A DNA stretch of 64,000 bases from an uncultured archaeon (GTDB taxonomy: Archaea; Asgardarchaeota; Thorarchaeia; Thorarchaeales; Thorarchaeaceae). The translations under genes and the position numbers were made by a program. The stretch is from the NCBI GenBank assembly GCA_964558645.1, contig CAZLEV010000003.1, forward strand, positions 128,001 through 192,000, written 5' to 3'. Positions 29,715 to 62,019 of this stretch are shown here, piece by piece; the stretch's first letter is position 1, and every line of letters begins with the position of its first letter. The notes under the pieces are model-generated. The model had not been told where the DNA came from. It saw nothing but the letters and a program-made list of their open reading frames with translations, and did no database searches.

Positions 29715-32700
29715 CTACTTTCTCTTTCGAACGTAGAACGCGACTACAGCAACTACGACCACTGCGATTCCTAGAGCCGCCAAGACCATAGGCAGTGTCA
29801 AATCCACAGGTCTTGTTGTTGCTTCTTGGGGTTGAACAGCTAGTACAGTGACGTCTACCCTATCAGAAACGGAATTTGCAGATCTATCATAGACTGTGAG
29901 TACGAAGTATGTTTCTCCGGGCTCTAGGTGGTCGACACTGTAAACGATGCGCGAACCGGACCAAGGTCCCGATGCCACAACACTGTTGTTTCTCTCAATC
30001 TGATACCATGCAGGATAGTCATCGTCTGGAGTCCAGACGACAGTGTTTCCAGTCGAGCCGTGCATGTAGGTCAGGTCGTCCGGTGAGTCTATGGTCGGAT
30101 CTACATCATCATCAATGACTTGGACAAGAATTGTATCGCTGTCAGAGTTTCTATCCAAGTCGTAAATGACAATGTGGTACTCGTAGATTCCTTCAATGAG
30201 TCCATCGAGACCCAAGGTCAGGGTGCCAGATGTCCATGTGCCCGTGATTTGCTCCTCCCCATCAATGTACACCATATAGATGTCGGGATTCAGGTCGGAA
30301 ATCTGCCACGTGACAGACTGATTGGTGCCGTCTTCGAAGACGGTGACATCTGCTGCAGAACTCATCACAGGCGGAGTGTTATCGAACACATGGATGAGCA
30401 CTTCATCAGTTGCGCTGTTGTCTTCAGTGTCCCAGATGGTGAAGGTTGCCGTATGGGTGCCATATGTGAGGTTATCCACATTGACAGTCACGCCGTCTTC
30501 GAACTTCCAGGCGTCCTCTTCCCAGAGCTGGCCATCGATCTCAAGTGTCCAAGACTTCAGGAAATCGTCTCGTGGGCGCCACGTGAGTGTGTTCCCCGCA
30601 GAACCCTCGGCATAGCTTATGTCCAGTGGCTGGTCAATCATCGGGGTCGTTGGTGCAAAGAGACATGGATAGTTATCTACCGATGAGCCTCCGGCAATCT
30701 CGTCATAGATGCCGGTTCCATCCCAGTCATCCCAGCAGTTACCAAGCTCAACGCCATCATCAAATGTGTTGAGACTATCATCATAGGCGTTTGCCGTACC
30801 ACTGAAGGCGATGGTGTTGTAGTAGACATCCGTGCCTGCTGACGAGAGCAAGACTATGCCAAACTGGGAGGACCACAGGATTGTGTTGTTCGTGATAAGT
30901 TGGTTGTCGCCGTTCACCACGCGGATTGCCTGACCACAGCTCTCGAAGTGGTTCAGGGTCACATTGTGCCCGTCTGAGGTGCTGCCAATTGGCTCAACTC
31001 CATACGAAGTACAATGCCGAAAGACGTTGCCTGTGATGTTGTAGTCGGATGAGCTGTATGCTGCAATTCCGATTGTGCAATTGTAGATGGTATTATTGAT
31101 GATTTGATGCGAGTTTGACTCGTAGAGCCCGTAGATGACCTGACCTGGAATGTGTCTAAAAACAGATCCCATCACGACCCCATTGTCCCCGTATTCACAG
31201 TATACGCCTTGGAAGGAGTTCTCTACGGTCAGGTTCAAGAGTTGAAACTGGTCAGACTCATAGAGATGGATTGCTGTTCCAGTTGGAATGAAGCGGTCAA
31301 AGGACGACTCTGCGACATACAGCCCATCGGAACGGTATCCGTAGATACCTTTCGCAGCCCCAATGCCGGTGAGCTGAGAATCAAGGACAGTTGCATTCTC
31401 GGTTTCGTGGACGACGATGCCATATCGGTTCCCAGAGATTTCAACGCCCTCGATGTTGATCTCCTCAGAGAAGGCAGTCAGGATTCCGGCCGATGACGTT
31501 TCGAATTCACCACCTTGTATCGTCATATTCTCGCAGTCCACGATGATGATTTCGCCACATTGTGTTCCATCTATGACCATGTCTGATTGTGCTCTGAGGT
31601 ACAGCAGATCCTTGCCATTGACGATGTTGTCGTTGACTGTATGATTGTAGTGCTGCACGTTCGGACTAATGGGCGCGAGTATGCCACATCCGGTGAACTC
31701 ATTTCCTTCTATGGTGCAGTTGATACACTGAAACAAGTAGAGTCCGTTCAGTGCCTGCGATACTATGTTGTTCGAGAAGGTAGCATTTACTGCGCCGTAG
31801 AATGCCGCTCCTTCATTCTCGATTGCCGTGATGGTGTTCTCGATCACCGTGAGATTGTCTGAACCAGTGATATAGATACCATCAACCGAATCGGAGATGT
31901 CATTGTCAGACAAGTATGCCCTGTCGCAGTCGGAAAGGTAGAGAGCCTGCGAAAATGCATCCGACAAGATATTGCCGATGATGACTGAATCTGGAGAGTT
32001 GGACAGCTCGAGTCCCCTAAGGAAAGTATTCGTGACGGTGTTGTACTCGATTTGGGCTGAGTCACAGCCCAAAACATGGATTCCGCGCTCAGCCATTTCG
32101 CTAATGATGTTACCACTCACTACCCAGTTGTCACACGACTCGAGGTATATTCCGGTCGTACCAACAATTTCAATGTGGTTGTCTGATCCTGTTCCGTTAT
32201 TACAACCAACAGCATAGATCCCGTACTCAGCAGCATCTTGGATGTAGTTGTCTGTCAGGGTTGGATCCTGACAATCATCAGCGTCTACTGCTGTATCTCC
32301 GGGGCTGATGAAGGAGCAGTTGTGAATCTCAAGTTCATCACACTCATCTATATCAATTCCCACAGCGCCAGAGTTTTCGATCACAGTATTGCGAATGCTG
32401 AGATTGTGACAGCCCTCTATGTCCATACCCTCTAAGACTACATCTCTGATTCGGCAGCCAGATATCACTGTGTCATTGCATTGGGTAATCTGGTATCCCT
32501 TAGGGCCATCAGAGATGTCACAGGAGGTAATGGACGCACCGTGTGATAACAGAATGTACATGTGCCTGACATTGGGTGTGCTCCCATAGAGATTCTCTAT
32601 CACGACCCCGGGGCTGAAGGCAACATATGGTCCCCCTTGAGGCCCATCGAGGTAGACATCTTGGATGACAAGCCCGTGGCAGTAGGTGGCCTGCAACGCC

Positions 32701-33407
32701 TCGCTCCCCCCGTGGACGTCGTTGTTTGTAAAGGCTGTTCCATTGGAGGAGGCAAGGATGAAGTTGTGATTTATCCCTCCAGGATAGAATGAACAAGAGT
32801 CGATGAGGGCTCCATGACAGTATTCGATGTATGTGGTCCGGTAGTCTGTTGCGTTAATCATGCAGTTCTGAAGGCTTATTCCTGGACAGCTCTCGGCCGT
32901 GACGGCATAGTCTGTACCTCCCCTCAGCACGGAGTGACTAACGTGCGTGTAGTTTGCCAAGAAGAGGTTGATGGCCTGCGTTGGAGAGAATATGGAGTTG
33001 TATTCGAGACTCGCATGGGTTGTGTTCTGAATCACTACGGCAGGGATGCTAGAAATCTGCCTGATGTAGCAGTCTTGAATCAAGAAATGCGCATACGTGT
33101 TCTTGATCTCTATCAGGACAACACCTAGGTCTCGAGTGATGTTCAGCCCAGATATCACGTATGGCTCCTCCTCTGTTCCATCCCCGGGCCAGCCCTGCAG
33201 TTCAAAGTCCTCGGTGCCCTCGATATGGATGGGTACATGAGGCTTGATCTCCTCTGGAGCCAAGCGCGATCCACGTTCTTGGGCGACCATGGCGGTCCTT
33301 TCCGTCAAGCCAGATTCATGGGTGTTCAGTATCCATTCTGAAGTCAGCATCGCCGGCTGCAGAATGAGCGCAACAATAACACAAAAGGCCAGTAACTTAG
33401 ATTTCAT
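29715..33407 (-). CDS. NosD/right-handed parallel beta-helix surface protein with three Ig-like domains and C-terminal TM anchor (paralog 1)
   Basis: Signal peptide; HVPIHI..GWPGDGT..PY cap; GIY....N..I..N repeats; GNCWDD; PxD.Y.EG..GN...W Ig repeats; TM + RKRK; SD GGAGGAG. Confidence 0.9.
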   Translation of the reverse strand: MKSKLLAFCVIVALILQPAMLTSEWILNTHESGLTERTAMVAQERGSRLAPEEIKPHVPIHIEGTEDFELQGWPGDGTEEEPYVISGLNITRDLGVVLIEIKNTYAHFLIQDCYIRQISSIPAVVIQNTTHASLEYNSIFSPTQAINLFLANYTHVSHSVLRGGTDYAVTAESCPGISLQNCMINATDYRTTYIEYCHGALIDSCSFYPGGINHNFILASSNGTAFTNNDVHGGSEALQATYCHGLVIQDVYLDGPQGGPYVAFSPGVVIENLYGSTPNVRHMYILLSHGASITSCDISDGPKGYQITQCNDTVISGCRIRDVVLEGMDIEGCHNLSIRNTVIENSGAVGIDIDECDELEIHNCSFISPGDTAVDADDCQDPTLTDNYIQDAAEYGIYAVGCNNGTGSDNHIEIVGTTGIYLESCDNWVVSGNIISEMAERGIHVLGCDSAQIEYNTVTNTFLRGLELSNSPDSVIIGNILSDAFSQALYLSDCDRAYLSDNDISDSVDGIYITGSDNLTVIENTITAIENEGAAFYGAVNATFSNNIVSQALNGLYLFQCINCTIEGNEFTGCGILAPISPNVQHYNHTVNDNIVNGKDLLYLRAQSDMVIDGTQCGEIIIVDCENMTIQGGEFETSSAGILTAFSEEINIEGVEISGNRYGIVVHETENATVLDSQLTGIGAAKGIYGYRSDGLYVAESSFDRFIPTGTAIHLYESDQFQLLNLTVENSFQGVYCEYGDNGVVMGSVFRHIPGQVIYGLYESNSHQIINNTIYNCTIGIAAYSSSDYNITGNVFRHCTSYGVEPIGSTSDGHNVTLNHFESCGQAIRVVNGDNQLITNNTILWSSQFGIVLLSSAGTDVYYNTIAFSGTANAYDDSLNTFDDGVELGNCWDDWDGTGIYDEIAGGSSVDNYPCLFAPTTPMIDQPLDISYAEGSAGNTLTWRPRDDFLKSWTLEIDGQLWEEDAWKFEDGVTVNVDNLTYGTHTATFTIWDTEDNSATDEVLIHVFDNTPPVMSSAADVTVFEDGTNQSVTWQISDLNPDIYMVYIDGEEQITGTWTSGTLTLGLDGLIEGIYEYHIVIYDLDRNSDSDTILVQVIDDDVDPTIDSPDDLTYMHGSTGNTVVWTPDDDYPAWYQIERNNSVVASGPWSGSRIVYSVDHLEPGETYFVLTVYDRSANSVSDRVDVTVLAVQPQEATTRPVDLTLPMVLAALGIAVVVVAVVAFYVRKRK

Positions 33408-33413
33408 CATATG

Positions 33414-33607
33414 CTCCTCCTTTGGCGGCATCGGAAGCTTGGTGCCACAGTGCACCATCTTCTCTCTCCACACGTCTTGCCAGCACAAACGCCGATAGAT
33501 CCTGACCACCAAGATGCCAAAGAACGAATCGCTTTGGCGCGGGCTTGTACCTTCGGGTTCGGTGGGCGCAATACCTGAACAGGTAGGAAGCTAAAGAATC
33601 TAATAAA
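33414..33607 (-). promoter_or_regulatory. TATA box plus long structured 5' leader with alternative SD-occluding pairing
   Basis: TTTATTA at 33607-33601. The transcript has GCCAAAG twice (33538-33532, and 33426-33420 abutting the SD) and one complement (33522-33516). Confidence 0.5.
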
Positions 33608-35177: not shown

Positions 35178-36242
35178 CTATTCAAAGATGTCGGATACCC
35201 GTTCATCGAATTCTTTGAACGCGGTGACAAGTGCCGTGTCGCTGGTCAACTGCTCTCTATGATTGACTTCAAACTCCATCATTGCATTTCTCAGTGAGTG
35301 TCGTAGACTCGGGGTTTCCTTTGTGACAATAAGGAGAGCTCTGGTGATGCTGCCTGTCTCCACAAGAATCCGTACATCTCCATGGTCAACCCTGTCGAGA
35401 GCACTCTCGCTTGCAAGCATCTCCTTCATCAAGCTGATAACACCGGACATCGCGGAACCGATGAGTTCGGGGTCCACACTGTCAGTGTAGTCACGGAAGC
35501 GATAGCTGTATACCAGCGTTCCCTCTGAATCAAGGATTAAGAGGTCGAGTGGCCTGGCTTCACTTATGAAGAGCATCTTGGGGTTCCAGGCAACTGTTAC
35601 GGCGACGAGGAGCAGGCCCAGCGTATATGGAATAGGCCACAAGTTGCCAATCTGCTGAGGGATCCCGGGAATCCCCGCGATTACAACGCCGAACACTCCA
35701 GCAATCATCCAGATGAAGAAACCTAGAAAATAGGCTGCAATCATTTTCTTTCGTTGAGGATCCTCTTCGACATTGATGACTTTCATGCCATAACGAACAA
35801 TCTCGTACGCTAGGAGAAGAAAGGCCAGTCCCTCGATGGCCACAGGAATCGCCTCAGACCAGTCCATCTTCTCGAGTTCTCCTAGCAGGGCTGCACCTGC
35901 CATGAAGGCAACTGCATTGGCTCGTGGAGGAAGCGAGTCATATTGGCTGTACATGATGGCATAGTACCAGAAAAGGAATCCTCCGACGATGAAGAATGCG
36001 AGGAGCACGTTGGACATCCAAAGACGTTGGCCACCGATATACACTTCCCAGTTTCTGAATGGCATGTAGATCTGGTCTAGTAAGAGATCTATTGCCATTG
36101 CTGAGAAGGATGCAATTGCCAAGGTATAGAGTAGAGTGGGAAGGCGTCTGGTTCTCCACCAAGATCTCACAATCACTATCATGGCGATGCCCGAGATGAC
36201 GGTAGAAACAAGCAGATACGGGACCAGTTCTAGTGATTGCAA
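35178..36242 (-). CDS. ~7-TM membrane protein with C-terminal cytoplasmic longin domain
   Basis: Seven hydrophobic segments, then LLILDSEGTLVYSY...DPELIGSAMSGV...EML...VDHGD..ILVE...FE longin pattern. Confidence 0.8.
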   Translation of the reverse strand: MQSLELVPYLLVSTVISGIAMIVIVRSWWRTRRLPTLLYTLAIASFSAMAIDLLLDQIYMPFRNWEVYIGGQRLWMSNVLLAFFIVGGFLFWYYAIMYSQYDSLPPRANAVAFMAGAALLGELEKMDWSEAIPVAIEGLAFLLLAYEIVRYGMKVINVEEDPQRKKMIAAYFLGFFIWMIAGVFGVVIAGIPGIPQQIGNLWPIPYTLGLLLVAVTVAWNPKMLFISEARPLDLLILDSEGTLVYSYRFRDYTDSVDPELIGSAMSGVISLMKEMLASESALDRVDHGDVRILVETGSITRALLIVTKETPSLRHSLRNAMMEFEVNHREQLTSDTALVTAFKEFDERVSDIFE

Positions 36243-37328: not shown

Positions 37329-37498
37329 AAAGGGTTATATGGGACGATTGCATTTCTGACAAGTTATCGCTGGGTTGACCGACCCCGGGAGGCCACGCAC
37401 TCCCAGCGCGAACTCATAGAGCGCCACCTTTGTGAGGCCCGCTTCGATGTCACACGATGACCTCCTCTGATCGGTTATCCATAGAGGAGGCTCGGAGA
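37329..37498 (+). promoter_or_regulatory. BRE/TATA plus structured 5' leader with SD-sequestering hairpin
   Basis: AAAGGGTTATAT (37329-37340); CGCTGGG/CCCAGCG stem (37368-37408); CCTCCTCT/AGAGGAGG stem (37461-37490). Confidence 0.55.
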
Positions 37499-39508
37499 TT
37501 GAGAAACCGAGAAATGCATAGAGTGAGACTTCTATCACTGGTTTTCATAGCTGTTGTGCTCTTGAACACCGTGCCCGGAGCTGTCTGGGCAGGACAGGCT
37601 GTAGAGAGGAGCGAGGAGATTCTACCCGATCCTACGAAGAAGTATGATTTGGACTACATCTACATCTTCTACGACCCCGCGGATGAATTGATGTGTTCCA
37701 TCGCGGAATCTGTCCATGAAGTCCTTAGTTTCAGGCTTCAGAATATAATCATGATTCCAGTGGACTCGTATGACATCCTCAACTTCTATCTCCTTGATGA
37801 ACCGTGGATTGCTGTCTATGCATTACGTTCGAGTCTGAAAAATGTGGTATTCCCCGACAGGAACATGACATGGTACAAGTTCTATCAGGTCCTTTCCGAG
37901 CATAGGTCAACCCGGCACGTTGTTGGCATGGGTAACACGCTATCGATGGCACAGCACATCGGCCCCACAGAGCCCAACATACGTCACACCGATGCAGAGC
38001 AGATTGATGGACTTGTTGTGATCTTGTACAATCTCTGGGAGATTCAGGAGGCACTATCCCAGCGCTCGGAGGCCAGCAGCGATTACAGGAGAGCCCACGA
38101 GGATATTCAGACGATGGCTCTCAAGATATATGGCGATAATTTCGACATGTTCTTCAAACGCACAGTCGACCCTCAGAATCCCATTGGGGAAATCGATGAG
38201 AAGGCTCGCGAAGAGCGAACGAAGAAGATGTGGGAACAACATGCCCCCACCATCGAGAAGACGTACTATCATATGTCTGAAGAAGGTCAGCTTGAGGAGC
38301 TCACCGAAGAGGAGCTCCCTGAAGACTTCACTCCGCCCATCAAACTAAGCAGCGCAGCCGAGCTGGCCGCAGACGATTTTGTTCTTGGTGAGATACCTCT
38401 GCTGTCTGCTCTTCGAGGCCCGATAGGCGAAATTATTGACGTACTCCTCAGCGTATTGGGTGGCTCTGGCTCCACAATCATCTCCGTTCCCAGCGATTTG
38501 ATAGAAACGATTCAGAGTCTCTTCTCTGTCATCAAACCCATCATTGGTATTGTTTCAGACTTTGATGCAGAGTCTCCTCTGAAATCTGTCGTAAACGCTC
38601 TGGCCAATGAGTTTCCATTCATGGCCCAGTTCAAAGACTACCTGAATATCATTCTCAAGGCTCTCTTTAACTTCAGAGGCGATCTTGGAAGCATATTGGA
38701 GATAGTCGGAGATCTGATTGAGGTCCTTCTGCCCGATAGTGTCCCGGATATGCTGAAGAGTTTCATCGGTCAGATGTTGGACGCCGAAGACGGGCTGTGG
38801 AATGCGATAAGCTCCTTGGTTACAGGGGAGAAGGGCGTATTCGATGCAATCTTTAGTTTCTTCACTACGAATACACTGGAGTCACTTCTGAACAAAACGC
38901 TATCTGCAACTATTGGCCTTCTTCCAAGCGAGGTTTCTGCCCTCCTCCCCCGCGTCGTGACTTTCACGAAGTCAATTGTCAGTTTCATGACAAGCGGCAA
39001 CTTCATGGACTTCATCCAGCAAGTGGGCACTGAACTGCTTAGCTCAATACTCTCTGTAGCAGGTCTAGAGGATGTCGTTGACAAGGTCATGTCATTCATC
39101 CACATGGCTATGAGCGTTGTCGACCTTGTAGACAAGTTCGACACAACAAGTCTAATCGATTTGGCAAAGGGCATGCTGGAGGAGATTGTGGGTGGTTCCA
39201 ACATACCTGGTGGTGTCGAGGCTCTGGCGAAAGAGCTGTTCAGTGTCATAAAGACTTTCCAAGAGGGTGCAAGCTCTGACTTCACAGGCTTTGCTTCGCA
39301 AATAGGCAGCATCTTGGAGTCTGGCATCACAGGGGTCTCTGAAGATGTGAGGAACATTGTCCGTGACACTATTTCCCTCGTATCTGGATTCTTCGTCAGT
39401 GGCTTCAACAAGAATCAGCTCCCCGATATTTTCGAGATAGCCCAGGACATTGCGAACGAGTTTCTGGGTTCAGGAGCGACGTTATCGAGGCCTTCAATCA
39501 GGCCCTGA
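37499..39508 (+). CDS. Giant surface protein, N-terminal part (signal peptide + amphipathic helical region); frameshifted relative to 39517-43995
   Basis: TTG start 8 nt after GAGGAGG; signal peptide; the helical pattern continues in the -1 frame (DVIEAFNQALKPILGII). Confidence 0.75.
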   Translation: MRNREMHRVRLLSLVFIAVVLLNTVPGAVWAGQAVERSEEILPDPTKKYDLDYIYIFYDPADELMCSIAESVHEVLSFRLQNIIMIPVDSYDILNFYLLDEPWIAVYALRSSLKNVVFPDRNMTWYKFYQVLSEHRSTRHVVGMGNTLSMAQHIGPTEPNIRHTDAEQIDGLVVILYNLWEIQEALSQRSEASSDYRRAHEDIQTMALKIYGDNFDMFFKRTVDPQNPIGEIDEKAREERTKKMWEQHAPTIEKTYYHMSEEGQLEELTEEELPEDFTPPIKLSSAAELAADDFVLGEIPLLSALRGPIGEIIDVLLSVLGGSGSTIISVPSDLIETIQSLFSVIKPIIGIVSDFDAESPLKSVVNALANEFPFMAQFKDYLNIILKALFNFRGDLGSILEIVGDLIEVLLPDSVPDMLKSFIGQMLDAEDGLWNAISSLVTGEKGVFDAIFSFFTTNTLESLLNKTLSATIGLLPSEVSALLPRVVTFTKSIVSFMTSGNFMDFIQQVGTELLSSILSVAGLEDVVDKVMSFIHMAMSVVDLVDKFDTTSLIDLAKGMLEEIVGGSNIPGGVEALAKELFSVIKTFQEGASSDFTGFASQIGSILESGITGVSEDVRNIVRDTISLVSGFFVSGFNKNQLPDIFEIAQDIANEFLGSGATLSRPSIRP

Positions 39509-39516
39509 AGCCAATA

Positions 39517-42500
39517 TTGGGTATCATCGCGATTGCGACGAACAAGGATACCCTTAAGCAGATGGTGAGCAAAACCGTTGATAATTTCGTTTCTGAACTT
39601 GGCGATATTCCCACTATGGTCAAGAATGTGATCAAGTTCCTTGATACCGAAGATTCCTTCCCGACCTCAGCCGGTCCAGTGGCTCTTGCAGCAGACGGCG
39701 AACTAGAAACGATTCTTGACACTGCCGGTGAGATTGTTGGCGGTGTCTTTCAGATGGTCCAGGGAATCAAGGGCCAGAGCTTTCAGGGTGTCATGCAGGC
39801 TGTTCTGATGAGTGCTGGTTCTCTTGTAGGGAGCTTCCCAGCATTTGATGATGTTCCAATCGACGCAGTACTCAAGCTTTTCCAGTCCTTCTTCCCCAAG
39901 GCATTCGGCCTAGATCAAGATGACATGCCGAGCGCGGCCACGATAGTTCAGGAAATCCTCGATCTTGCAGAGGGGCTCATTGGAGGGTCACTCGATCTTG
40001 GAATGGTGCAGGAGATTCTCACTTTCTTCATGGATATCAAAGGCATCTTTACGAATGGCGTTGAGTGGCTCTTGGGTAAGGTGTTTGACTGGCTAAGCGG
40101 CCTGCTCAGTCCAATTCTTCAGGACATTGAGAATTCGATTGCCGGTCTCTTTGAAGGGCTCGATGACCTGCTAGGCTTCTCTGGGAGTCTTCCTATTGGC
40201 CTTGGTGATTGGTCCCTGTTTGATCTGACCTACGCCCTGGGAATCCGTGCGAACTTTGCCATCGACCTTACTCCGATATTTGACATGATCGTGAGCATGA
40301 TATTCGATGCCCGTGAAGTCTTCGCCATTGAGAATCTGGGCAAGTTCTTCAAGCAGCTGTTCTCATTCTTCGAGATCAGTCCACAGTTCTATGCAGAACT
40401 CGGTGTAGGTGGCTTCGATACAGAGAAGAACCCCCTCATGAAGACCATGCTTACAACTCTTGGTCTTGAGCTCTCCTTTGAGGGTAGCGCCAAGTTCGTG
40501 CTTAATCTATTCACCTTTAGGAATGGCCAGTTCGAATTCGAGAACTTCTTCAAGGTTGTTGAGTGGGGCCTCCATATCAAGATTCATCTCGGCAAAGTCT
40601 TCACACTGCTTGACTTCCTCACCGCCGGTGTCGGTGGAGGGGCACTCAACGCGGTTGCAGAGTTTCTAGGGCTGGACTCTATCAAGGTCGAGGTCTATTT
40701 CGACATTCTGATTGATATCATCAAGAAGGCAGCTTCGGCAAACCAGCCCGAAGTATCCAGCATGACACTCACAATAATATTCGGCGTGGCCATACATATC
40801 CCTATCGAGCTAATCATCGTTGCGATCACTATTGACGGGTCACTGGAGATCATACTCACTTTCTTCCAGGATTTCGCTAACCCCGCTCCTATGAAGATTA
40901 CATTGCGTCTCATCTTCACCGTTAAGGTGAAGTTCCGATTCCTGTTTGTATCCGATACTGCCAAATTCACTTGGGAGCCTGGCGGCCCGTGGGACCTATC
41001 ACCGAACAAGGGTGAGGCCGAGTACACCGAATCCGGGGTAGGATTCGACTCGGACGGTGACGGTCTATCAGATGAGTATGAGGATAGCATACCCGGCCTT
41101 GACAAGAATAACCCTGACACCGACGGTGATGGTGCCAATGACAAGCTAGAAGTAATGACCATGGGCACTGATCCCGTCAATCCTGACAGTGATGGGGACG
41201 GTCTGCTTGACGGCGAAGAATGGGATTTGGGCACGAATCCGATGCGAGAAGACAGCGACTGGGATGGCATAAGCGATTATGACGAGGTACGAGTCTATGG
41301 GACCGACCCTCTCTGTCAAGATACGGACGGCGACGGGCTGAGTGATTACTATGAGATTCACACCAAGATAGATATCAGCGGTGTCACACCAACCGTGACA
41401 GAGGTCATCATCGGAGGCGTTTCTTACAATGATCGAACGGATCCTCTAAATCCGGATACTGATGGTGATGGTCTACTTGATGGTGACGAGGGCCCGATGG
41501 GTGCCTACTATGGTGACCCTGCCCTGTATAATGACACTGAAGATGAGGATACCGGTTGGGCTATGGATCCAGACCCGCTCATCTTCAATGGGGGATACAC
41601 TCATCCGCTTGACGCCGATACGGACGATGACAGTTATCTCCAGCTCTACAACGGAGTGGTTGACTCTCAAGCGCTCCTGTTCCTCAAAGACATGAACGAC
41701 GGAGCTGAGGTCGCAGGCTTCTGGATCATTGTCTACGATGAGGAGGGCGAGCCCGAGAGGAAACGGGTTTTCACGAATCCTTGTAACCCGGATAGCGATG
41801 GAGATACAGGTGTCACCGACAGAACGCCGCAGCCGGGCGCATGGTTGAACTCCGACGGATACGAGCTCGCACAAGTGCCGCCTACAGATCCCACAAACGG
41901 CGATTCCGACGGCGATGGGCTGTTGGATGGACTCGAGGGAGTTCTCAGCCAGTATAGCAATCACACTGACCCGAATAATCCCGATACAGATGGAGATGGA
42001 TTGTTTGATATGCAGGAGGTACTACTTGGTACTGATCCAAGATGTGCTGATTCCGACGGTGACATGATCAGTGATGGTGACGAGTTCTACATATACTTCA
42101 CAAATCCACTTCTCTGGGATACCGACTTTGACGGACTCGGTGATGGTGAAGAGGTGTTCTTCTGGCATACGAACCCGCTGATTGACGATTCGGATGGAGA
42201 CCGGCTACTCGACGGGGATGAGGTTCTCATATATGGAACGGATCCAATGGACGAAGACACCGACAATGACGGTCTCACGGACTTTGAAGAGGTCATGATT
42301 TGGTACACTGACGGTTTTGTGTACGATACCGATGGGGACGGACTATCGGATGGAGAGGAGGTGAAGCTCTACGGAACAGACCCTCTATCGTGGGATACTG
42401 ACGGGGACTCAATCACAGAGCCGAATGAACACGGTGAGATGACCTTCCCGCTCAGCGACTATCATGAGGTCATGATATACCACACTAATGCAACAGACGC

Positions 42501-43995
42501 TGATTCAGACCAAGATGGCTTACGCGACTCCATTGAGCTCTATCTGGCTTCAGGGCTGATTCCCTGGATGGATCCGATTCCGCTTGATCCCAACCTCAAG
42601 GACACTGACGGCGACCTGCTACCTGATGGTTCTGAGCTGGCTATCCAGAATGTTTCTGGCCTCATCTACCCATATCGTGCAATGACACTTGTCTTTCGCT
42701 ACAACACGTCACCTGTCAATGCCGATACTGATGGAGACCTCCTCACAGACTACCAAGAGGTGATGGTGTTCAACACGTTACCGTATAACAACGATACAGA
42801 CAACGACACACTCACCGACTATCAGGAGATATGGATATACAACACATCAGCCCTGACAAATGATACTGACGGTGACGGTCTGTATGATTTCGAGGAGACG
42901 TTGGTGGAGGTTTATCCGTATGGGCCATGGCCTCCGGACAACTGGAGCATAGGAATGGAGCCCAGCGAGTTCTTCACAGCTGCAGACTGGGATATAGCAG
43001 ATGTTGACTACGCTAGTCTGCCTCAGTTTGAGTTGGCCCAAGAACCGCTCTACCCCACGCTTGCGACAGATCCTGACTCGGATGATGATTGGTTGCCGGA
43101 TGGTGCTGAGGTTCACTTCTATCATACAAATCCAATGGACAGTGATACCGACGGTGACGGCATAGAGGATGGGATGGAGTTTGACACCGACTTTGACGGG
43201 CTTGAGGATGGACTGGAGTTCAAACTCGGTCTGCATAGAGTTGGAGGTGGAATATTCAATCCGGACTCAGACGGTGACGGAATTCCAGATGGAGCAGAAT
43301 ACTACATATACGGGACCGACCCGGGGAACCCGGACACCGATGGTGACGGCTATCCCGATGGTTTGGAGATTATGATTGGGACTGACCCCTTGGTTGAAAC
43401 GACTCGAACAGAGTATGAGTATGCTCTGGCAGTGAAACGGGGCGATTCAACCATGGACATTCTCATGCCGCTGGGTGCTGTCAAGAATGCTCGGACCGTG
43501 GATGTGAACGTCCTCAACTTCACTCCCTTTGAAGAGATGTGGTTCAGATACAACACCACTGACGGCTGGAGTGAGAACACCTCCATGACGTACAACCCTG
43601 CGACCATGACATGGAGTCATACTACCATTGAGTGGGAAGAAGGAGGATACGTCTTGCAGGTGTTCGGACTGGACACAGAGGGCGAGACCCATGCGGCTCA
43701 GCGATACTTCAGTGTGGCCGCCGTGCCGACTTATCCCGAACCTCTGAACCCGCTCATCATGTTGGCCATCGGGATTGGCGTCGGCATCTTTGCAGTTCTC
43801 TTCATCCTGTTCGGTATCCCCCTGATACGGGACTACTGGCGGAAACGGCAGGAGGCGAAGGCTGCCGAGGCTCCGCCTGAGGAAACGGTGGAGACTGCCG
43901 AGGAATCGACCAGCAAGAAGAAGACATCCAGTAAGAAGAAGACATCCACCAAGAAGAAGCCAAGCTCTGAGAAGAGCAAGAAGGGAGGTGCGTAG
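39517..43995 (+). CDS. Giant surface protein, C-terminal part: helical region, long beta-strand region, TSP3-like Ca2+-binding repeats, Ig-like domain, TM, Lys-rich tail
   Basis: No SD or signal peptide of its own; frame open from 39367; about 26 DxDxDGxxDxxE repeats; TM LIMLAIGIGVGIFAVLFILFGIPLI. Confidence 0.8.
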   Translation: MGIIAIATNKDTLKQMVSKTVDNFVSELGDIPTMVKNVIKFLDTEDSFPTSAGPVALAADGELETILDTAGEIVGGVFQMVQGIKGQSFQGVMQAVLMSAGSLVGSFPAFDDVPIDAVLKLFQSFFPKAFGLDQDDMPSAATIVQEILDLAEGLIGGSLDLGMVQEILTFFMDIKGIFTNGVEWLLGKVFDWLSGLLSPILQDIENSIAGLFEGLDDLLGFSGSLPIGLGDWSLFDLTYALGIRANFAIDLTPIFDMIVSMIFDAREVFAIENLGKFFKQLFSFFEISPQFYAELGVGGFDTEKNPLMKTMLTTLGLELSFEGSAKFVLNLFTFRNGQFEFENFFKVVEWGLHIKIHLGKVFTLLDFLTAGVGGGALNAVAEFLGLDSIKVEVYFDILIDIIKKAASANQPEVSSMTLTIIFGVAIHIPIELIIVAITIDGSLEIILTFFQDFANPAPMKITLRLIFTVKVKFRFLFVSDTAKFTWEPGGPWDLSPNKGEAEYTESGVGFDSDGDGLSDEYEDSIPGLDKNNPDTDGDGANDKLEVMTMGTDPVNPDSDGDGLLDGEEWDLGTNPMREDSDWDGISDYDEVRVYGTDPLCQDTDGDGLSDYYEIHTKIDISGVTPTVTEVIIGGVSYNDRTDPLNPDTDGDGLLDGDEGPMGAYYGDPALYNDTEDEDTGWAMDPDPLIFNGGYTHPLDADTDDDSYLQLYNGVVDSQALLFLKDMNDGAEVAGFWIIVYDEEGEPERKRVFTNPCNPDSDGDTGVTDRTPQPGAWLNSDGYELAQVPPTDPTNGDSDGDGLLDGLEGVLSQYSNHTDPNNPDTDGDGLFDMQEVLLGTDPRCADSDGDMISDGDEFYIYFTNPLLWDTDFDGLGDGEEVFFWHTNPLIDDSDGDRLLDGDEVLIYGTDPMDEDTDNDGLTDFEEVMIWYTDGFVYDTDGDGLSDGEEVKLYGTDPLSWDTDGDSITEPNEHGEMTFPLSDYHEVMIYHTNATDADSDQDGLRDSIELYLASGLIPWMDPIPLDPNLKDTDGDLLPDGSELAIQNVSGLIYPYRAMTLVFRYNTSPVNADTDGDLLTDYQEVMVFNTLPYNNDTDNDTLTDYQEIWIYNTSALTNDTDGDGLYDFEETLVEVYPYGPWPPDNWSIGMEPSEFFTAADWDIADVDYASLPQFELAQEPLYPTLATDPDSDDDWLPDGAEVHFYHTNPMDSDTDGDGIEDGMEFDTDFDGLEDGLEFKLGLHRVGGGIFNPDSDGDGIPDGAEYYIYGTDPGNPDTDGDGYPDGLEIMIGTDPLVETTRTEYEYALAVKRGDSTMDILMPLGAVKNARTVDVNVLNFTPFEEMWFRYNTTDGWSENTSMTYNPATMTWSHTTIEWEEGGYVLQVFGLDTEGETHAAQRYFSVAAVPTYPEPLNPLIMLAIGIGVGIFAVLFILFGIPLIRDYWRKRQEAKAAEAPPEETVETAEESTSKKKTSSKKKTSTKKKPSSEKSKKGGA
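41047..43392 (+). repeat. Coding TSP3-like Ca2+-binding repeats (DT/SDGDGLxDxxE...GTDP)
   Basis: About 26 copies counted by eye, some degenerate. Confidence 0.85.
43915..43959 (+). repeat. 18-bp tandem repeat encoding KKKTSS/T
   Basis: AAGAAGAAGACATCCA at 43915 and 43933, plus a partial third copy at 43951. Confidence 0.8.
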
Positions 43996-43996
43996 A

Positions 43997-46900
43997 GTGA
44001 AGAAGCAGATACTAACCCTCGTGTTCATGACGGTAATGATGGTCGGTGCGTTCGGCATCATTCCTGTAATCCCGGTCACTACTACTGCTATTGATAGTGA
44101 GGACATGCTGACCACACCAACGGGTCTTTGGGACGATGTTCCCGATGACTTACGGCCGTCAATAGAGAGCCTGATGGCAGGGATGGATCAGACACTGCCT
44201 GCAGATAAGGACATAGGCCTAGTCCTCGGTGACAGGATGAACGACTACAGGGTGACCTACGAACCCTGGAAGTCGAAGGCGGCCATCCACGCTATAGCAT
44301 ATGACGAGGGTACTGGCTTCCTTGCACTGGGAGGCGGGTACCTCTATGATAATCAGGTGCATATCTTCCGTTTGAATACTGAGACCAAACTCTGGGACAA
44401 GGTCTGGGACACAGGCGATGGTATCTTCGGCAGTGATGTAATGGCTCTGGACTTTGGGGACACGGACCTTAACGATTTCATTGAGATTGTTGCAGGGTGC
44501 GCCGATGGGCACGTGTATGTCTTTGAGCAGCGGCATATCTACGACCCCTATGCCAATACGGAGAACCAGTTCGATCATGTCTGGACCAGTCCTAACATGT
44601 TCCGTGTCTTCGATGTCAAGGTAGATGATATAGACCGTGACTACAGGCCAGACATCATAGCTGGTGGCTGGGATGGCAAGATACACATCTTTGAGTACAG
44701 TAATCACTCGGGTTATCCCTTCACCGAGGAACATTGGATAACCTATGATGAGGTTTCAACCCTCGAAGTCGGAAAGAACGAGAGAATCTACTCCATAGAA
44801 ACAGGTGATACCAACTACAATGGCCTTCCAGAGATAATATGCGGCACCCGGGAGGGGACGGTCTACGTCTTTGAGAACGATGGTCTGGTTATGATGATCA
44901 ATGGGCAGCCCTTCCCGCTGATAAACGACAACAATTACTACTTGAATTGGAGCAGCGAGAACTACACTTGGACACCGATACTGTCGATGTCTGTGGGAGA
45001 ACTCGACGGTACCCCCGGTGACGAGATAGCCCTTGTCGCACAGGGCCAGGGTGTCTTCACCCTCGATTGGAACGAACTCAGGGGCACATACGACTACGAG
45101 AAGGTCTATCGTGACTACGAAGAGTGGGAGACCTTCGGCTTCTGGCAGCTTGATTTCTATGTTGACCGCGTTGTCGAGGCGAATAACGTGACCTATCACG
45201 ATCCAGTGAATGCATCTCTACATGTCGACGAACCGATACAATACGAGTGGAACGAAGGACTGGGGATATTTTTGCCAGATGCAAGTGTATACCCGTATAA
45301 CTCAGGCATGGCCGGCCCGAATACACTCCAGAGCGGCGCCGATGGCAACTTCTCCACCTTTGATTCGTCGATAGCTGGTGTATCCAACTGTACGGCAGTA
45401 CTTGACTTCGGCCAGGATGAGGAAGGTACTGGTGGGGCGAACGACCGGGCTGATGTCATGATATACTTCAAATCAGGGACGAGTCTGAACCTTGCTGAGA
45501 TGCCGAATCACTTCAACTTCAGCATTTCAAAGGATGGTGATGAGTTCGAGCAGGTCTCCTTGGACCATGCCTGGGCTCTCTTCAGCACAATGTACATAGA
45601 TGTGGATGATGCGCTGTCCCGTCGGAAGTGGGACTACTTCCGTTACGTCAAGATTTCTGTGTTCAATGATGCAGTGTACGATATCAATGGTCTGCAACTC
45701 GTTCAGGTGTACAACACGCTTACCGACGCAATAAGTGTGGAGATTGGTCCGCTACGAATGGATGGAATGTCCTATCTATCAGGAACATCGGAACCCAACA
45801 AGATCCTTGCCGGGACCGTTACAGGCGAGCTGATTGCCATTCAGTATAACTCCACGCAGAACGACTACGACATAATCTGGGAGAGTTGGGACGATGACTT
45901 CTATACATTTGGCGCCAACATCTGGGATATGGAGTATGTGGGCAACACACCCAATGTACCAACTTGGAATTGGCAATATGGAATGATCTGGAATCCCGTA
46001 GGTGCAAACACCTACAACTCGTGGAGCTACGGTGTCCTTAATCCATGGCAGTTTGGGTCGGCCACTTTCAATTACTTCATGGGCACAAACGAAGGAGAGA
46101 TTCGGGCATTCACGGTCCCTGATGTGGTTCCGATTGGCTCATCACCTCTGATAGATCCTGTGACAGATGGGTACTTCAGCAGCATCAATTCTTGGCTTGC
46201 ATCTAACGATTGGGTCAATGTTTCAGTGGAAGCGCCATGGTTCATCCAGAACGATCTCGGAACGAACCATCCAATGATAGCTCTTGGTGTGTTCAATCCC
46301 GATGTTTCTATCGAGAATATTCCACTGACAGATTTTGCTGATGCACCTACGCGAGCAGCCGTGATGTTTTACTACCGCGAAGATGACACAAGCAATTTCA
46401 TCATGCGTAGGGATCTCTATAAGATGGACACAACGGGCGAGCTTGTCAATCAAATCAATCTTGCTCGAGCTCCTCCGAAGCTGGACTTCGCGGACTTCGA
46501 CAAGGACGGAGACCTTGACTTCGTGGTGTCCAATGGCTACTTGTACATGGCCCGCAACATGTGGATGGAGACTGAAGGCCCAGACCAGACGCTCAACTTC
46601 ACCTTGGTGAGAGGCTATTTCGATGACATAAACAACAAAGCGACCAGCAAGATTTGGGGTCAGCCCGAGCTTGTTGACATCGACTCCGATGGTGACATGG
46701 ATCTCATCCTCAGCTATGCAAACAGCAAAGGAGCAACCTGCTGGATTAACGAGGGTACTAAGGACAATCCTATCTGGGTCGAGGATAAGCAGGTCATGTC
46801 GAATCCTAGACCTGAGACGAATATGAAGTATCAGAACTTCACAGATGTGCGTATCGTGCCTAAGATGGGTGCTTACTACTCCGGATATACCATGGAACGC

Positions 46901-49900
46901 TGGTATGAACTGAACGGTTGGGAGATGGATTTCGATTGGACCATTGCCGGCTATCGGCCTTGGAACCAACGTATCGCTTGGGCGACTCCCGAGTTTGACA
47001 CAACCGAGAGCTACATTGTGGCCAGCTATCCACGAGTTGCCCAGCTTGACTTCAGCCTCATGAGTAATGCTGTCAGCGGTCTCAGAGCTCACATCAATAT
47101 TGGTTTCCATGTACATGAGTCATGGAGCAACGATGATGACCTTAAGGACTGGACCCTTGCCATCACGTCAGCTGATGTCGACAACGATGGAAAAGGAGAG
47201 CTGATTGTGGGTGACTATGACAACAATGTGTATGCCTTTGAGCATCTGGGGAACAACACGTACAAACGTATGTTCCGGTCCTTTGACCTCAATCACACGG
47301 TTAGCACGGACGCTTCGCCATATCTGCATGAAGAGCTTGAGGGTATCTCCGGTGACTTCAATCGGAGGATATGGGACCATGCGAAACACTTGGTTGCAGG
47401 TGTGGACCTTGATCAAGATGGGCTACGTGAAATCATCGTGGCAGCCAATCTACAGGTATACATCTTTGAAGAGGTTGGTCTCTTTGGTGGTGACGAAGTC
47501 AGGTTCGTCTATTCCTTCGACTTGCGTGACACAGAGTGGAGCGACAGACCGGCGTGGGACCTGGTGACCGAGATTACCGCCATGGCTGCAGGAGATGATC
47601 TCGACCATAACGGAGAACTGGAGCTTGCTGTGGCTGCTGGACCCTACCTATTCATCTACAATGTCCCCGAGGGAACCTTCGATAACATGGAGGACCGTGA
47701 GTACTTCGTCACAAGCCCATCGCTTGAGGGTCGATACTTCCTTGTAGGAAACCCAGAACTGATTGATTTCAGGTACTATGAGATCAGCACACTGGTGCTC
47801 TGCGATACAGATCAAGATGGCTACAGAGAGGTCATCCTTGGGGGAACAGAAGATGTTAGACTACAGCGACCCAACGGTTTTGCTCACATCTACGAGTGCC
47901 AGGGTGGCACCTTCTACAAGGTCTGGGAGGCTCCGATTGAGGTAACTTATTGGAACCCTGTGTCGGTCATCAAATTGGATGATCAAGACTATGATGGAGC
48001 TCAGGAGATCATCATTGGCCATACCTTTGGATTCGACATGTGGGAGTGGATACCCGGCACAGATTCAGAATATCAGAAGGTTGAGTACGTGACTTCTTCA
48101 CCCAATTATCCAAAGGTGCCGCTTACCACGACATACGCCAGCGGTGATAACGCTCTGGATTCTGTTGAGACCGAGCGGTCTATCAAGGACATGGCACGTG
48201 GAGTGACTGGAGCTTGGTCGGACTACATCTTGATGGTCTACGAGAACTCAACAGAGATCTGGTACAAGCTCTACAATGAACCCAATGACCTCTGGTCCTA
48301 TGGTGCCAGATTCAGTACTCTCACCGGTCTTGCATATAGCGGAAACAGCAGTCCGATAGTCAAAGAGACACGTCCAACGGTTATATTCAACGAACCAGAG
48401 GGTGACATCTACGTTGCTTGGGAGGCTGAAGACAGCGGCGGAATTCGATATCTTGCTCTTGTTTGGGGCGACATTGGTGTGGGGTGGAACGGTATCAAGC
48501 TCTTTCAGGACTTCAGCGGAATCGGTGGGTGGACACGTCGCTACTATCCAAGTGTGTTCCAATTCAACTCAACCCATGTTGGATTGGCGTGCACCTACGA
48601 CAGCTACTCCGCCCTATTCCCGGGAACATACAGCTACGGCCGTGTGGCAGTCTACATCACGCCTGATGACCTCTCTGGCGGCTGGACATCCATGCCCGTC
48701 AACTTCAACGACAGAACGTACTTCCAAGCCCATGATGTAGACATCATCAGGCTACACGATGATGATGCTGATGGTAACTACTCTTTCGCCATAGCAATGT
48801 CTGCAGTCTATACGAGGTCTGCGAAGGCAGACCATGATGTGTGGGTGGTTGTGTGTGATGATGACTCGAACTTCAACTGGACCGGTGCCAATCCTCACCA
48901 GGCCACGACATCGTTCGATGACGAGATGTTTGTTGACATTGACCAGTCGCAGTCAGAGGAGCATGCCCTCATGGTGATATACGAAAGTATGGGTGTACCT
49001 CTTGAAGACCGTATCGGCATGGTTTCGAGTACAACGCTGGGCAGAGAGTGGAATCTTGAGAATACACTGAATACCATCCCGGAGTACATCATTCGCACTG
49101 AGATGCCCAGCGGATACATACACTATTCGTACGGCGGTTCTCCTTGGCCAATCTATAAGCTCTCGGCCTTCTCACCAGATCTCCTTGCCATGGACGGCTC
49201 TGGGTTCATGTATACATGCACATTCTCGTATGCATTCTACTTCCCACCTGGATATGTCGGCGACCTAGGTTTCTGGTACACAGGTCATGACATTGTCTAC
49301 GGCATCAATCCACAGTCTGATTGGACAATGAACCATCTGAGGGATGTGGTTGACCTCGATACAGGCGACACTGACGCCGATGGGCGACGTGAAGTAATCG
49401 TGGGCTTTGACAATCAAGTTGGAGTCTATGAGATGAAGCACTCGACGAATGGTACCGGCTTCATGACATATGAAGAGGCTTGGCTGTCTGATGCGTTCCA
49501 GAATCCAGTGACGGGTGTTACGGTCTACGATACTAACGGAAACGGCTGGGACGAGATTGGCATAGCAACAGAACGAGGTGATGTCTACATCTGGGAATAT
49601 GTTGATCCGTCCGAGGGTGCGGTGGAGCTCTGGTACTCCGAGCAGTTGTGGACGACTCCCACAGACGGCAATGCAGCCCTCATGTACTGGGCTGACCTCA
49701 TCGATGCCTACGATGTAGACGGAGATGGCTACGATGAGATATTCACAGCCAATCCGGATATCGGAAGAGTGGCTGCATACCATCCAAATGGCAGTCTGTT
49801 CTGGGAGAACACTGACGCAGGCGATGGCTTCAACTGCTTCCTGTTGTCAGACCTGAACAATGATACGGTACCCGAGATACTTGCTGGTTCTGATGACACG

Positions 49901-58086: not shown

Positions 58087-61000
58087 TTAGCTAGGTCTTC
58101 TCTTTCGTATATACCAAATCAGAGCACCTACCACCACGATAACGCCCACGACTCCCGCAATCAGGAGTAATGGAACGATGTCGGGAGGTGGAGGTGTTGC
58201 GGTAGGAACAGCCGCTACGACCGTGACAACGACTGTATCGGTTGCAGTATTTCCACTCTTGTCTGAAACTGTTATCGCGAACTCATAGGTTCCGGGGTCA
58301 AGTCCATCGAGATTCACAACTACCTTGCCGCCTCCCCAACTACCAGATGCATATAACGTGGAGTTCTCCATCACCTCGAAGGAGGCAGGGTATTGGTCTG
58401 ACGGTGTCCATGTGATGGTATTACCCACTGTGCCCTCGACGTACACGATGTCGGCGGGTGAGTCGATGGTGGGACTGATGTCATCGTTGATGACCAGTAC
58501 TCTCAAAGTATCTTCTGCCATGTTTCCGTCAACGTCATAGATGACCATCCGAAGGATACGTAGCCCCTCTGAGAGGTCATCAATGCCAACTTCAAGAACT
58601 CCTGAAGTCCACGAACCTGTTTCAGATTCGATGTCATCCACATAGAGAACGTAGTGGTCAGGGTTCAGGTCATCCACAGTCCATGTCACTGTCTGACCAG
58701 TTGCGCCGACAAAGGCTTCTCTATCTGGAGCACTGCTAATGGTGGGCGGAGTCGCATCATAGACGTGTATGTTGACCGTGTCTGTCACATAGTTCTCATG
58801 GATATCCCACACAGTGATTACCAACGTATGGGTGCCGTATGGCAATCCATCAATGTTGACGATGATACTGGTATAGTTCCATGCATCCCCGGCCCAGTAC
58901 TCCGAGTTGATCTCAACTTCCCAGTTGCGGAGGTTATCATCAACAGGGTACCATGTGATGGTATTTCCGGTGGAACCCTCTGCGTAGGACATATCCTGAG
59001 GTTGGTTGATGATGGGCGTGGTGGGGAGGAATCCCTGTGGATATCTGTCCTGCGCATTCCCGATTATGACCGGAGCGCCAGAGAACGGGTACCAGTAGTT
59101 GCCCATGCTCACATTATCGTCCCAGTTCCGAACCGAGGCATCATAGCCATTTCCTTCCAGGTTCATCACAAACACGTTGTAGTAGACCGAGACGTTGATT
59201 CCCGATGAAACATATACTCCGTACTCCGAATTCCATCTAATGGAGTTGTTCAGGATGAAGATGTTCGCGCCTCCCTCGACGTAGACTCCGTAGCCGTTGT
59301 CCTCTATCTTGTTGTAGGTGACATTGACCCAATCAGACCATAAAAGGTAGACTGCCCGGTCGGTACAATACGAGAAGTTGGAATCACTGATTGAAACATT
59401 GTCAGAGGAAAAGACGAACACCCCTACTGATGCGTTCGTAAATGTAGACTCTTGGACAATGTCGTTGTTGAAGTTATCCAGAAATACCCCGTAACTGTTG
59501 AGGTCCTTGAAGTCGCACGAGGTGAGGAACATGCCAGAACCATCGTGGGCGTACACCCCATAGTGTGAGTTTGTCACGCTGCACTGACTGATTCGGACAT
59601 TGGTTGTAGTGAAGAGTCTGATCCCTACGCCATTGGATTCATAACAGTCCGCGACAGTGGTTCCAGTGATGTTGATGTTGGTGACCGAGAAGGTCGCGAT
59701 GCCCCACCTGCTATCAGAACCATCTGAGTCGCAGTCCTGAATTGTCACGTTCTCGGCCAGATACCCGATGTAGGCCGCAAGGTTGTTGGAGAAATGAGCA
59801 TCCTGGATGAGCAGATTGTGAGTTCCGTATCCCGCGATAGGCACGGAGGCAGAATCGAAGTCGCCCCCAGTCACCGTGCAGTCAGTGGAGTTCATGAGCA
59901 AGATCTGGCCATAGTCATCCCCATTCAGGTCAATGCTCGAACCATTCCATGCGTAGTAGAGCGGCTTACCGTTCACAGTATTGCCTGAGAACTCGTGCTC
60001 ATAGGTATCGATTAGGTGGAGTTCGAAGACGAACCCACAGCCCGTCAATGTGTTGTCTCTGAAGTGAGAATCTGTTATACCGTGGAGGAAGATACCCTGC
60101 TCTGACGGAAAGTCAATGGAGTTATCAACAAACGTGATGTTTGTGGAGCCCATCACATGCACTGCCTCCAGACCTGTTCCACTTAGTGTGTTTGCAGCTA
60201 CCTCTACATTCATGCTACTCGACATATAGAACGCCTCGCCACCTCCCTCCACAGTGTTCCCAGAAACCGTCGAGTTGTGCAAGCCATGCATATTGATTCC
60301 ATACGTTTGACTACCATTCACCCAGTTGTTGGCAATAGTTGTCCTGGGGCTATTTAATGCCAATATACCTTGTGAGGATGCCATGCTGATATCGTTATCA
60401 TTGATGTTGGCGTCGGGACACTGCATCACGTAGATGCCACTGTGAGTGGTGCCGGTGATGGTGTTCATATCAATGAAACATCGCGGTGATACTACAACCC
60501 AAATCGCATATGCGCCAGAGTCGGAAATCGAATTGGACGTTATTGTCGAGTTTTCACAATGGTCTAGGGCGATGCCAAATGCACCCGCGTTGGATATGGA
60601 ACTACCTACTATGTCTACTGGGTACGAATAGTTGGCGTATATTCCAGAGGCAACTATTGAATCGATCGTTATGCCGCTGAGTAATGTTCGGTTTGAGTCG
60701 GTAATCTCGATTCCGAAGTACGTGGTGTTGGATATCGAGCTGTCAGTGATCTCACTATGCGGAGAGTTGACCACGAGGATTCCTGATGCCTCAGCGTCTG
60801 TCAGGGTCAGTCCAGTGATTGTGGTCTCCCAAGAATCAGAAACAACGACACCTTGTTCTCCACTCGAAACAACATTACAGGATGAGAGTGTCGTATGGTT
60901 CGACCAATCGATCTCGATGCCGATATCTGCCTGCGAGCCAAAGGTGGAATCAGTCACGCTGGTTGCGTTGCACTTGTAGATCTGTAGTCCGGGGCGGCTA

Positions 61001-61842: not shown

Positions 61843-61847
61843 TCTCC

Positions 61848-62019
61848 ACTCCTCCGGGAGTCTTTTCATGAAGCATCGCTGAGGCATGTGAAAGAACTGG
61901 ACAAGCGCAGTGATGTGCCTGTGTTGTCCATATGGTGCGGCGAACGGAGCTCGCTTCCTTTACCTTCACGCCAGTGCATCAAGACGTGCTGCTTTCCTCT
62001 CGGCAAACTCACTAATAAA
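61848..62019 (-). promoter_or_regulatory. TATA box plus long structured 5' leader
   Basis: TTTATTA at 62019-62013; three nested stems and an ACTCC/GGAGT hairpin over the SD. Confidence 0.5.

Follow-up and report, generated by a model that had tools for sequence, protein, structure and literature searches.

The window analyzed here, a 64,000-nucleotide stretch from a Thorarchaeote whose closest named relatives are Thorarchaeota MAGs, carries two very large genes, A and B, read in the same direction (Table 1). The SD sequence of gene B sits in the final codons of gene A, an arrangement that indicates translational coupling and bears out the initial annotation of the locus as a two-gene operon. 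Among 64 A homologues, 28 have a tail with a terminal double glycine, at the codons that this SD overlaps. Read across a break in its frame, gene A would encode ~2166 residues, and gene B encodes 2696, both close to the ~2170 and ~2700 residues estimated at the outset. Downstream of gene B lies a Penicillin-amidase-family gene with an N-terminal hydrophobic segment (52489-55062), which is not conserved beside the pair. The operon region is flanked on both sides by paralogous surface proteins of the beta-helix (NosD-like) type that have PKD-like domains (29715-33512, 58087-61887 and 62102-63934), and the window also holds a 782-aa open reading frame lacking a Pfam match (27195-29543) and one of 354 aa with a sub-threshold match only (35178-36242).

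Table 1. Features of the A-B operon, in window coordinates.
Feature	Position	Strand	Basis or remark
SD of gene A	37483..37490	+	Sequence
Most likely start of gene A (TTG)	37499	+	Fits N-termini of relatives; alternative in-frame ATGs at 37457 and 37514
Gene A, 5' piece	37499..39508	+	Signal peptide, pseudo-protease and the first half of the helical domain; cut short by the frameshift
Clan-CD (caspase/CHAT/legumain-like) alpha/beta domain without His/Cys dyad	37646..38173	+	AF2 model of homologue
Conserved linker (short strands and amphipathic helix)	38177..38521	+	Model; part pairs with the beta domain
Acidic amphipathic helical domain, ~550 aa, split by frameshift	38522..40155	+	Model and sequence; largely missing in short paralogues
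4-bp deletion frameshifting gene A	39470..39477	+	4-nt gap against three relatives; allele in runs of two studies
Gene A, 3' piece	39517..43995	+	Frame open from 39367; lacks its own signal peptide
Amphipathic beta-meander (11 long strands, helical inserts)	40165..40992	+	Model; no family match
~26 bacterial-type TSP3 Ca-binding repeats (stalk of A)	41047..43371	+	Motifs, Pfam
Membrane-proximal beta-rich domain of A	43444..43749	+	Presumably Ig-like; no Pfam match
TM helix and Lys/Ser/Glu-rich tail (55 aa) of A	43753..43992	+	Hydropathy, sequence
SD of gene B	43984..43990	+	Within the last codons of A
Gene B, intact (GTG start)	43997..52087	+	2696 aa; multi-propeller single-pass protein
First seven-blade propeller of B, with two nested inserts	44276..47056	+	AF2 pLDDT 88.2, pTM 0.84
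Insert 1 of first propeller, beta domain	~45167-45700		Presumably jelly-roll-like
Insert 2 of first propeller, second propeller-like region	~45962-46993		
Further FG-GAP propeller of B, with ~390-aa insert (48164-49336, no Pfam match)	47159..49606	+	Motif spacing; inferred boundaries
C-terminal propellers of B (FG-GAP/PQQ-like)	49634..51916	+	Shortened or lengthened in other lineages
Pro-rich neck, TM helix (51995-52057) and short basic tail of B	51940..52087	+	Hydropathy, sequence
Terminator-like hairpin and T-run 3' of gene B	52150..52179	+	Weak; 0.4 expected by chance

The break in gene A is genuine. Three relatives carry four more bases near 39473, the close relative X3 has the four extra letters at the deletion site, and A is intact, at ~2150-2220 aa, in nearly all relatives. 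The deleted allele is present in the probable source run (X1) and in a run of a second study (X2), whose contig spans the site without differences, although the two runs could still derive from one site. Assembly error was rejected as the cause of the split, the same 4-bp deletion occurring in the runs of two studies, and programmed frameshifting is unsupported because the relatives have an intact A. The product of the 5' piece would leave the cell unanchored and that of the 3' piece has no signal peptide, so the A copy in the window is probably inactive and the A-B complex is probably not made in this strain, which tolerates the loss of intact A. As gene B is still intact, the loss of A appears to be recent. 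No second B or A-type sheet was found elsewhere in the host genome.

Hydropathy gives both proteins a signal peptide and a C-terminal TM helix, as had been proposed for A, while the cytoplasmic tail of A, first put at 45 residues, is ten residues longer. Between head and membrane, A forms a stalk of tandem DxDxDGxxDxxE repeats, matched by Pfam TSP3_bac (PF18884; E = 3.5e-48, 161 bits against a cut-off of 25). Here, a strict pattern finds 23 TSP3-type motifs (shuffled mean 0.005) and a loose one 26, the number first counted. The Ig domain placed below the stalk by the initial annotation is only partly upheld: a beta-rich region lies there, presumably Ig-like, but it has no Pfam match, and some A homologues have PKD domains. 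There are 13 N-glycosylation sequons in the 3' piece of A and 34 in B. TSP3 and FG-GAP repeats are also present in several unrelated proteins of the host genome and therefore are not by themselves indicators of adhesion. On two contigs of the host genome (G000:C9:139287-142022 and C11:31271-33766), FG-GAP and TSP3 repeats share one open reading frame with identical scores, reflecting either a recent duplication or an assembly overlap.

In an AF2 model built from an intact homologue (1149 aa, pLDDT 80.5, pTM 0.55), the head of A consists of an alpha/beta domain, ~550 residues of helices, and a set of 11 long strands into which helices are inserted. SAVED-CHAT is the best match to the alpha/beta domain (Z 11.1-11.3, rmsd 4.2, ~160 residues aligned), ahead of legumain at Z 9.2 and metacaspase at Z 8.8, but it stands only 1-2 Z above generic alpha/beta folds. 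The assignment of this domain to clan CD is decided better by sequence comparison than by these structure matches. A profile search reaches other TSP3 surface proteins with the same domain, all of the named ones from Asgard archaea, and in stand-alone relatives of A a His-Gly and a Cys are invariant at the clan-CD positions, on the expected strands. A His-Gly followed by a Cys is the motif of clan CD (PMC12445089). The dyad is absent from all 82 A proteins (82/82). Among 30 genomic loci with a clan-CD-like domain, 21 are dyad-intact and none of these lies near B (0/21), while the six adjacent to B all lack the dyad (6/6), some of the contigs being short. Since the dyad is gone in every A and kept in the relatives, the A head is a pseudo-protease at most, and its N-terminal domain is best described, from its alignment, as a catalytically dead clan-CD fold. 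No Pfam family rose above noise for it. The fold is the one common to the clan CD proteases (CHAT, legumain, metacaspase, gingipain C25) and the pseudo-caspases; in contrast to the clan CD proteases, the A family lacks both catalytic residues, and its domain is extracellular, on a TSP3 stalk.

The dyad-intact relatives form a family of Asgard surface proteins (G000:C5:169719-174498 of the host genome, locus L073; L068-L085, L087, L089 and L094), often with TSP3 repeats, which is also found in Lokiarchaeum ossiferum (L082) and has no Pfam match; its alignment gave no match among PDB sequences. Several members also have a sheet-like region. Together, these proteins look like an undescribed extracellular clan-CD protease family. 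One clan-CD-like domain lies inside an open frame of 13,746 codons (G160:C3:1041049-1041561), and a vWA plus Peptidase_C25 gene (L055:1-2316) stands two genes upstream of a single A-B pair, an arrangement not seen at the other loci.

The remainder of the A head is built from the helical domain and the beta-meander, of which the latter is the most conserved part. Mean hydropathy on the two faces of its strands is about +1.5 to +3.8 and -0.5 to -1.6, and the helical inserts between strands are glycine-hinged; in the model, the sheet is predicted to be large, curved, and amphipathic. Its alignment retrieved nothing credible from Pfam or PDB sequences. The best VIA and Atlas structure matches to the sheet are outer-membrane barrels, with the autotransporter EspP at Z 8-9 and CymA at Z 9.5; the barrels have 12-14 strands and match at an rmsd of 5.6-9 Å. 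An Atlas feature search returned no usable match, and a viral fold library yielded weak matches in helices only, for example to tape-measure proteins. Pfam profile matches of the helical domain, to a tape-measure protein and another helical protein, were likewise weak and were judged compositional. A second, shorter paralogous pair (A of ~1550-1650 aa, B of ~1950 aa) often stands beside the long one (G001:C26, G008:C29, G009:C11, G010:C4, G024:C5, G035:C34 and others); its A keeps the pseudo-protease and the sheet without most of the helical domain.

Protein B is a stack of beta-propellers. It matches Pfam FG-GAP_3 (E = 3.9e-30), and a strict pattern finds 13 FG-GAP Ca loops in it (shuffled mean 0.17), or ~25 when degenerate ones are added by eye, in line with the ~25 loops and several propellers first described, as are its Pro-rich neck, TM helix, and basic tail. 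In an AF2 model of B residues 1-1181, a seven-blade propeller spans model residues 15-941 and is followed by a further propeller. The first propeller reaches a Z of ~31 to known seven-blade propellers, and the nesting of domains within it resembles that of DDB1/SF3B3 at 8-10% identity, an architectural likeness only. The loops of blades 1-5 are near-invariant across the phylum, and the C-terminal half of B carries lineage-specific extensions, including C-type lectin and beta-helix domains.

How A and B relate to one another was surveyed in 400 Asgard genomes, 90 of them good. A was matched in 101/400 and B in 81/400 (27/90 and 24/90 of the good genomes), and every one of the 81 genomes with B also has A. 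At 113 B loci, the neighbors stand in the order A to B at 80 and B to A at six; when ten apparently lone B loci were inspected, A lay upstream at seven, and the other three ran into the end of a contig. The genes flanking the pair differ at every locus. As related genomes are not independent, we placed weight on rearrangements, namely the reversal of gene order and gene fusions. In a Thorarchaeia genus, A and B are fused in frame into a protein of ~4900 aa that keeps the TM helix and tail of A and the signal segment of B. In Baldrarchaeia, a fusion of ~4350 aa has two hydrophobic segments at the same junction and lacks the C-terminal TM of B, which implies that B relies there on A or on its own former signal helix for anchoring. 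A single clade for both fusions is rejected (p-AU 1.8e-59), and thus the two arose independently. Two genomes hold two copies of the pair within ~32 kb, one in each gene order (G102:C1 1647796-1679953 and G107:C4 141649-173964), and B is followed after five bases by a third gene, one with PPC domains, in a genome of the Hodarchaeales (L048:16451-16962).

A and B thus behave as an obligate unit. The initial annotation had named independent occurrence of the two genes in other genomes as the finding that would speak against a pairing; what is found is strict co-occurrence, adjacency retained through reversal of order, and two independent fusions, by which a two-subunit surface unit is well supported. 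Of the heterodimer first proposed, the genetic unity therefore stands, and physical contact is presumed. A complex prediction for L. ossiferum A 885-1310 and B 86-640, run with alignments, gave no answer (score 0.00), with a guessed cut and a B propeller short of one blade. Sequence identities of A and B are correlated (Mantel r 0.89), a value we set aside as evidence of co-evolution, linked genes sharing their history. We consider it likely that A and B form a complex.

The pair is patchy in distribution, occurring in ~20% of Asgard genomes, and is not pan-Asgard. The conservation across Thorarchaeota and other Asgard archaea that had been put forward as a check is seen in several lineages, with named hosts including Thorarchaeota, L. 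ossiferum, Harpocratesius, Hodarchaeales, Heimdallarchaeum, and Kariarchaeaceae, but it is not universal: the pair is found in none of the 135 genomes of one family (0/135), nor in a single-contig Thorarchaeote. With such a distribution, it cannot be a universal Asgard coat or be required for contact with a partner. One host is in culture, L. ossiferum (NEF87_004127 and NEF87_004126; L047:10001-24160), and its pair nests inside the Thorarchaeia clade in the B tree (p-AU 0.047 for a group chosen after the tree was seen), which is no more than suggestive of lateral transfer from Thorarchaeia to Lokiarchaeum. No plasmid match was found. A reduced pair on a soil metagenome contig (L056:10001-19407) has an A-like gene (E = 5.7e-38) and a B-like gene (E = 1.8e-137) with a 4-bp overlap. 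Its protein cluster is labelled Bathyarchaeota/Bathyarchaeia, a label that rests on MAG names, and the pair may accordingly occur outside Asgard archaea. The A-like protein has the sheet, TSP3 repeats, and HYR domains behind a different N-terminus, and the B-like protein ends without a TM helix.

The reading we favor, tentatively, is that A and B are subunits of one membrane-tethered, calcium-stiffened surface complex for attachment or reception, with a neighboring cell, a vesicle, or an organic particle as its target. Coupled translation would supply A and B at roughly 1:1, and Ca2+ would fold both the stalk and the propeller blades so that the two heads are held off the membrane; A and B would bind each other. 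In such an assembly, the dead protease cleft and the invariant propeller loops of B might bind protein or glycan ligands, with the hydrophobic sheet offering a non-polar contact, and the task of the complex would be holding or capture, not signalling. The A head probably originated from a stand-alone surface protein with protease, sheet, and TSP3 stalk that lost catalysis on pairing with B, the direction of change being putative. In a more ambitious version, which we think rather improbable, the pair would be a contact machine in which the B stack recognizes a partner cell or vesicle and the A sheet engages its lipids for anchoring or uptake; this would make it one of the surface structures of L. 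ossiferum that lack an assigned protein, and possibly a prokaryotic analogue of the large lipid transfer proteins of eukaryotes, or related to them.

A structural role in the envelope, in which A-B would self-assemble into an irregular coat or scaffold made rigid by Ca2+ and bind no outside target, is somewhat unlikely. The very large size and many sequons of both proteins are consistent with it, as is the concentration of conservation in the sheet and the first propeller, and the hydrophobic face of the sheet could be buried by the helices of A itself or, in a coat, by B or other copies. The Asgard surface is moreover non-crystalline with globular densities, for which a 'badge' protein with large beta-sheets has been proposed (10.1101/2025.07.22.663070). 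This protein, LOKIASV2_13140 of Nerearchaeum marumarumayae, is predicted to be a surface protein of very large size whose beta-sheet domains, themselves very large, have a novel fold; it is present in all Promethearchaeaceae genomes that its authors examined, and no stalk, partner, or pair is described for it (10.1101/2025.07.22.663070). It resembles A in size and in its large beta-sheets, a likeness drawn from the published description, whereas A itself was matched in only 4/14 genomes of the family to which L. ossiferum belongs. An accessory function accounts better than a coat for the patchy distribution and the tolerated loss, and the lectin and beta-helix additions to B in particular lineages suggest ligand binding.

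The amphipathic sheet raises two further possibilities. One is the capture of lipids or hydrophobic nutrients, in which the helical domain and curved sheet of A would enclose a cavity as in MTP, vitellogenin, and apoB while B recognizes the donor particle or cell. Large lipid transfer proteins take all five of the highest Foldseek places for the A model (best E 2.6e-4), and they share with A the order in which a helical domain precedes a large antiparallel sheet of amphipathic character (MTP, lipovitellin/vitellogenin, apoB). The strong hydrophobicity of one face fits such a role, as does the retention of the sheet in short paralogues that have lost most of the helical domain. However, these matches have a TM of 0.07-0.13 and an rmsd above 30 Å, values so poor that homology is not established and the order of secondary structure alone may account for them; A also lacks the N-terminal beta-barrel and is tethered to the membrane on a Ca stalk. 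We regard this reading as doubtful. Large lipid transfer proteins do not appear among the 50 best VIA matches, a listing that does not speak against kinship. Less probable still is a tethered membrane-inserting module, whose 11-strand sheet would close or oligomerize into a barrel in the membrane of a neighbor, as an anchor or pore, the clan-CD protease having been the original autoprocessing trigger. The likeness of the sheet to EspP and CymA, the glycine-hinged inserts, and the sheet-like region of several dyad-intact relatives all point that way, but those matches have an rmsd of 7-9 Å and Z values in the range that any large curved sheet would reach, every B-paired member has a dead protease, and no immunity-like gene is conserved among the neighbors.

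Models of how eukaryotes arose give cell-cell contact a central place, and the complex surface structures of Asgard archaea have no proteins assigned to them. The pair provides a concrete, highly conserved candidate of ~0.5 MDa in a cultured strain, L. ossiferum, on whose surface densities without an assigned protein have been seen, some of them linking protrusions (PMC9834061). Its patchy range limits the claim to an accessory system, not the Asgard coat. The pair is apparently undescribed: no account of it was found in the literature, including under Asgard and FG-GAP, in a search that most subscription journals lay outside. Beyond the initial annotation, the analysis adds the dead protease head, the dyad-intact relatives, the Bathyarchaeia-labelled pair, a real frameshift, and an unclassified amphipathic sheet; the head of A is thereby linked to an apparently undescribed extracellular caspase-like protease family.

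Among the nearest known systems are the integrins and the bacterial TSP3 adhesins. As in the integrin alpha/beta heterodimer, a seven-blade Ca-loop propeller of the FG-GAP/VCBS superfamily sits on a single-pass subunit, B, that has a second single-pass partner, and the integrin-like logic initially suggested holds in this outline. B fits the alpha-type description through its Pfam FG-GAP matches and its modelled propeller, but it has several nested propellers in place of a single one followed by thigh and calf domains. Neither A nor B has a vWA match in Pfam, as first noted, or a MIDAS; A lacks a beta-I domain, its only alpha/beta domain aligning with dyad-bearing clan-CD-like relatives. The integrin tail motifs GFFKR and NPxY occur in 0/64 A tails and 0/84 B tails, which range from 5 to 124 aa and are not conserved; the A tail is fused to B in two lineages, in one of which B has no C-terminal anchor. 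These tail and domain results largely refute a true integrin precursor, that is, a heterodimer whose tails connect the actin cytoskeleton with ligands outside the cell, and we consider one highly improbable. The Asgard 'integrin beta 4-like' family (PMC9258230), which adjoins tubulin/FtsZ genes, appears to be different from A-B. Comparable to A are CglD and MtsD of Myxococcus xanthus, surface proteins with many DxDxDG Ca-binding repeats (10.1101/2023.10.19.562135). The L. ossiferum A scores 157 bits against the NCBIfam CglD model (cut-off 400) and 49.5 against MtsD (cut-off 800), in the repeat region only. CglD, a lipoprotein rich in Cys, contains a vWA/MIDAS domain, whereas A combines a C-terminal TM helix with a dead clan-CD domain, a helical domain, and an amphipathic sheet, and its propeller partner is obligate. 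By analogy, then, the pair would work most like a bacterial TSP3 adhesin joined by an FG-GAP propeller partner, while being a member of neither system.
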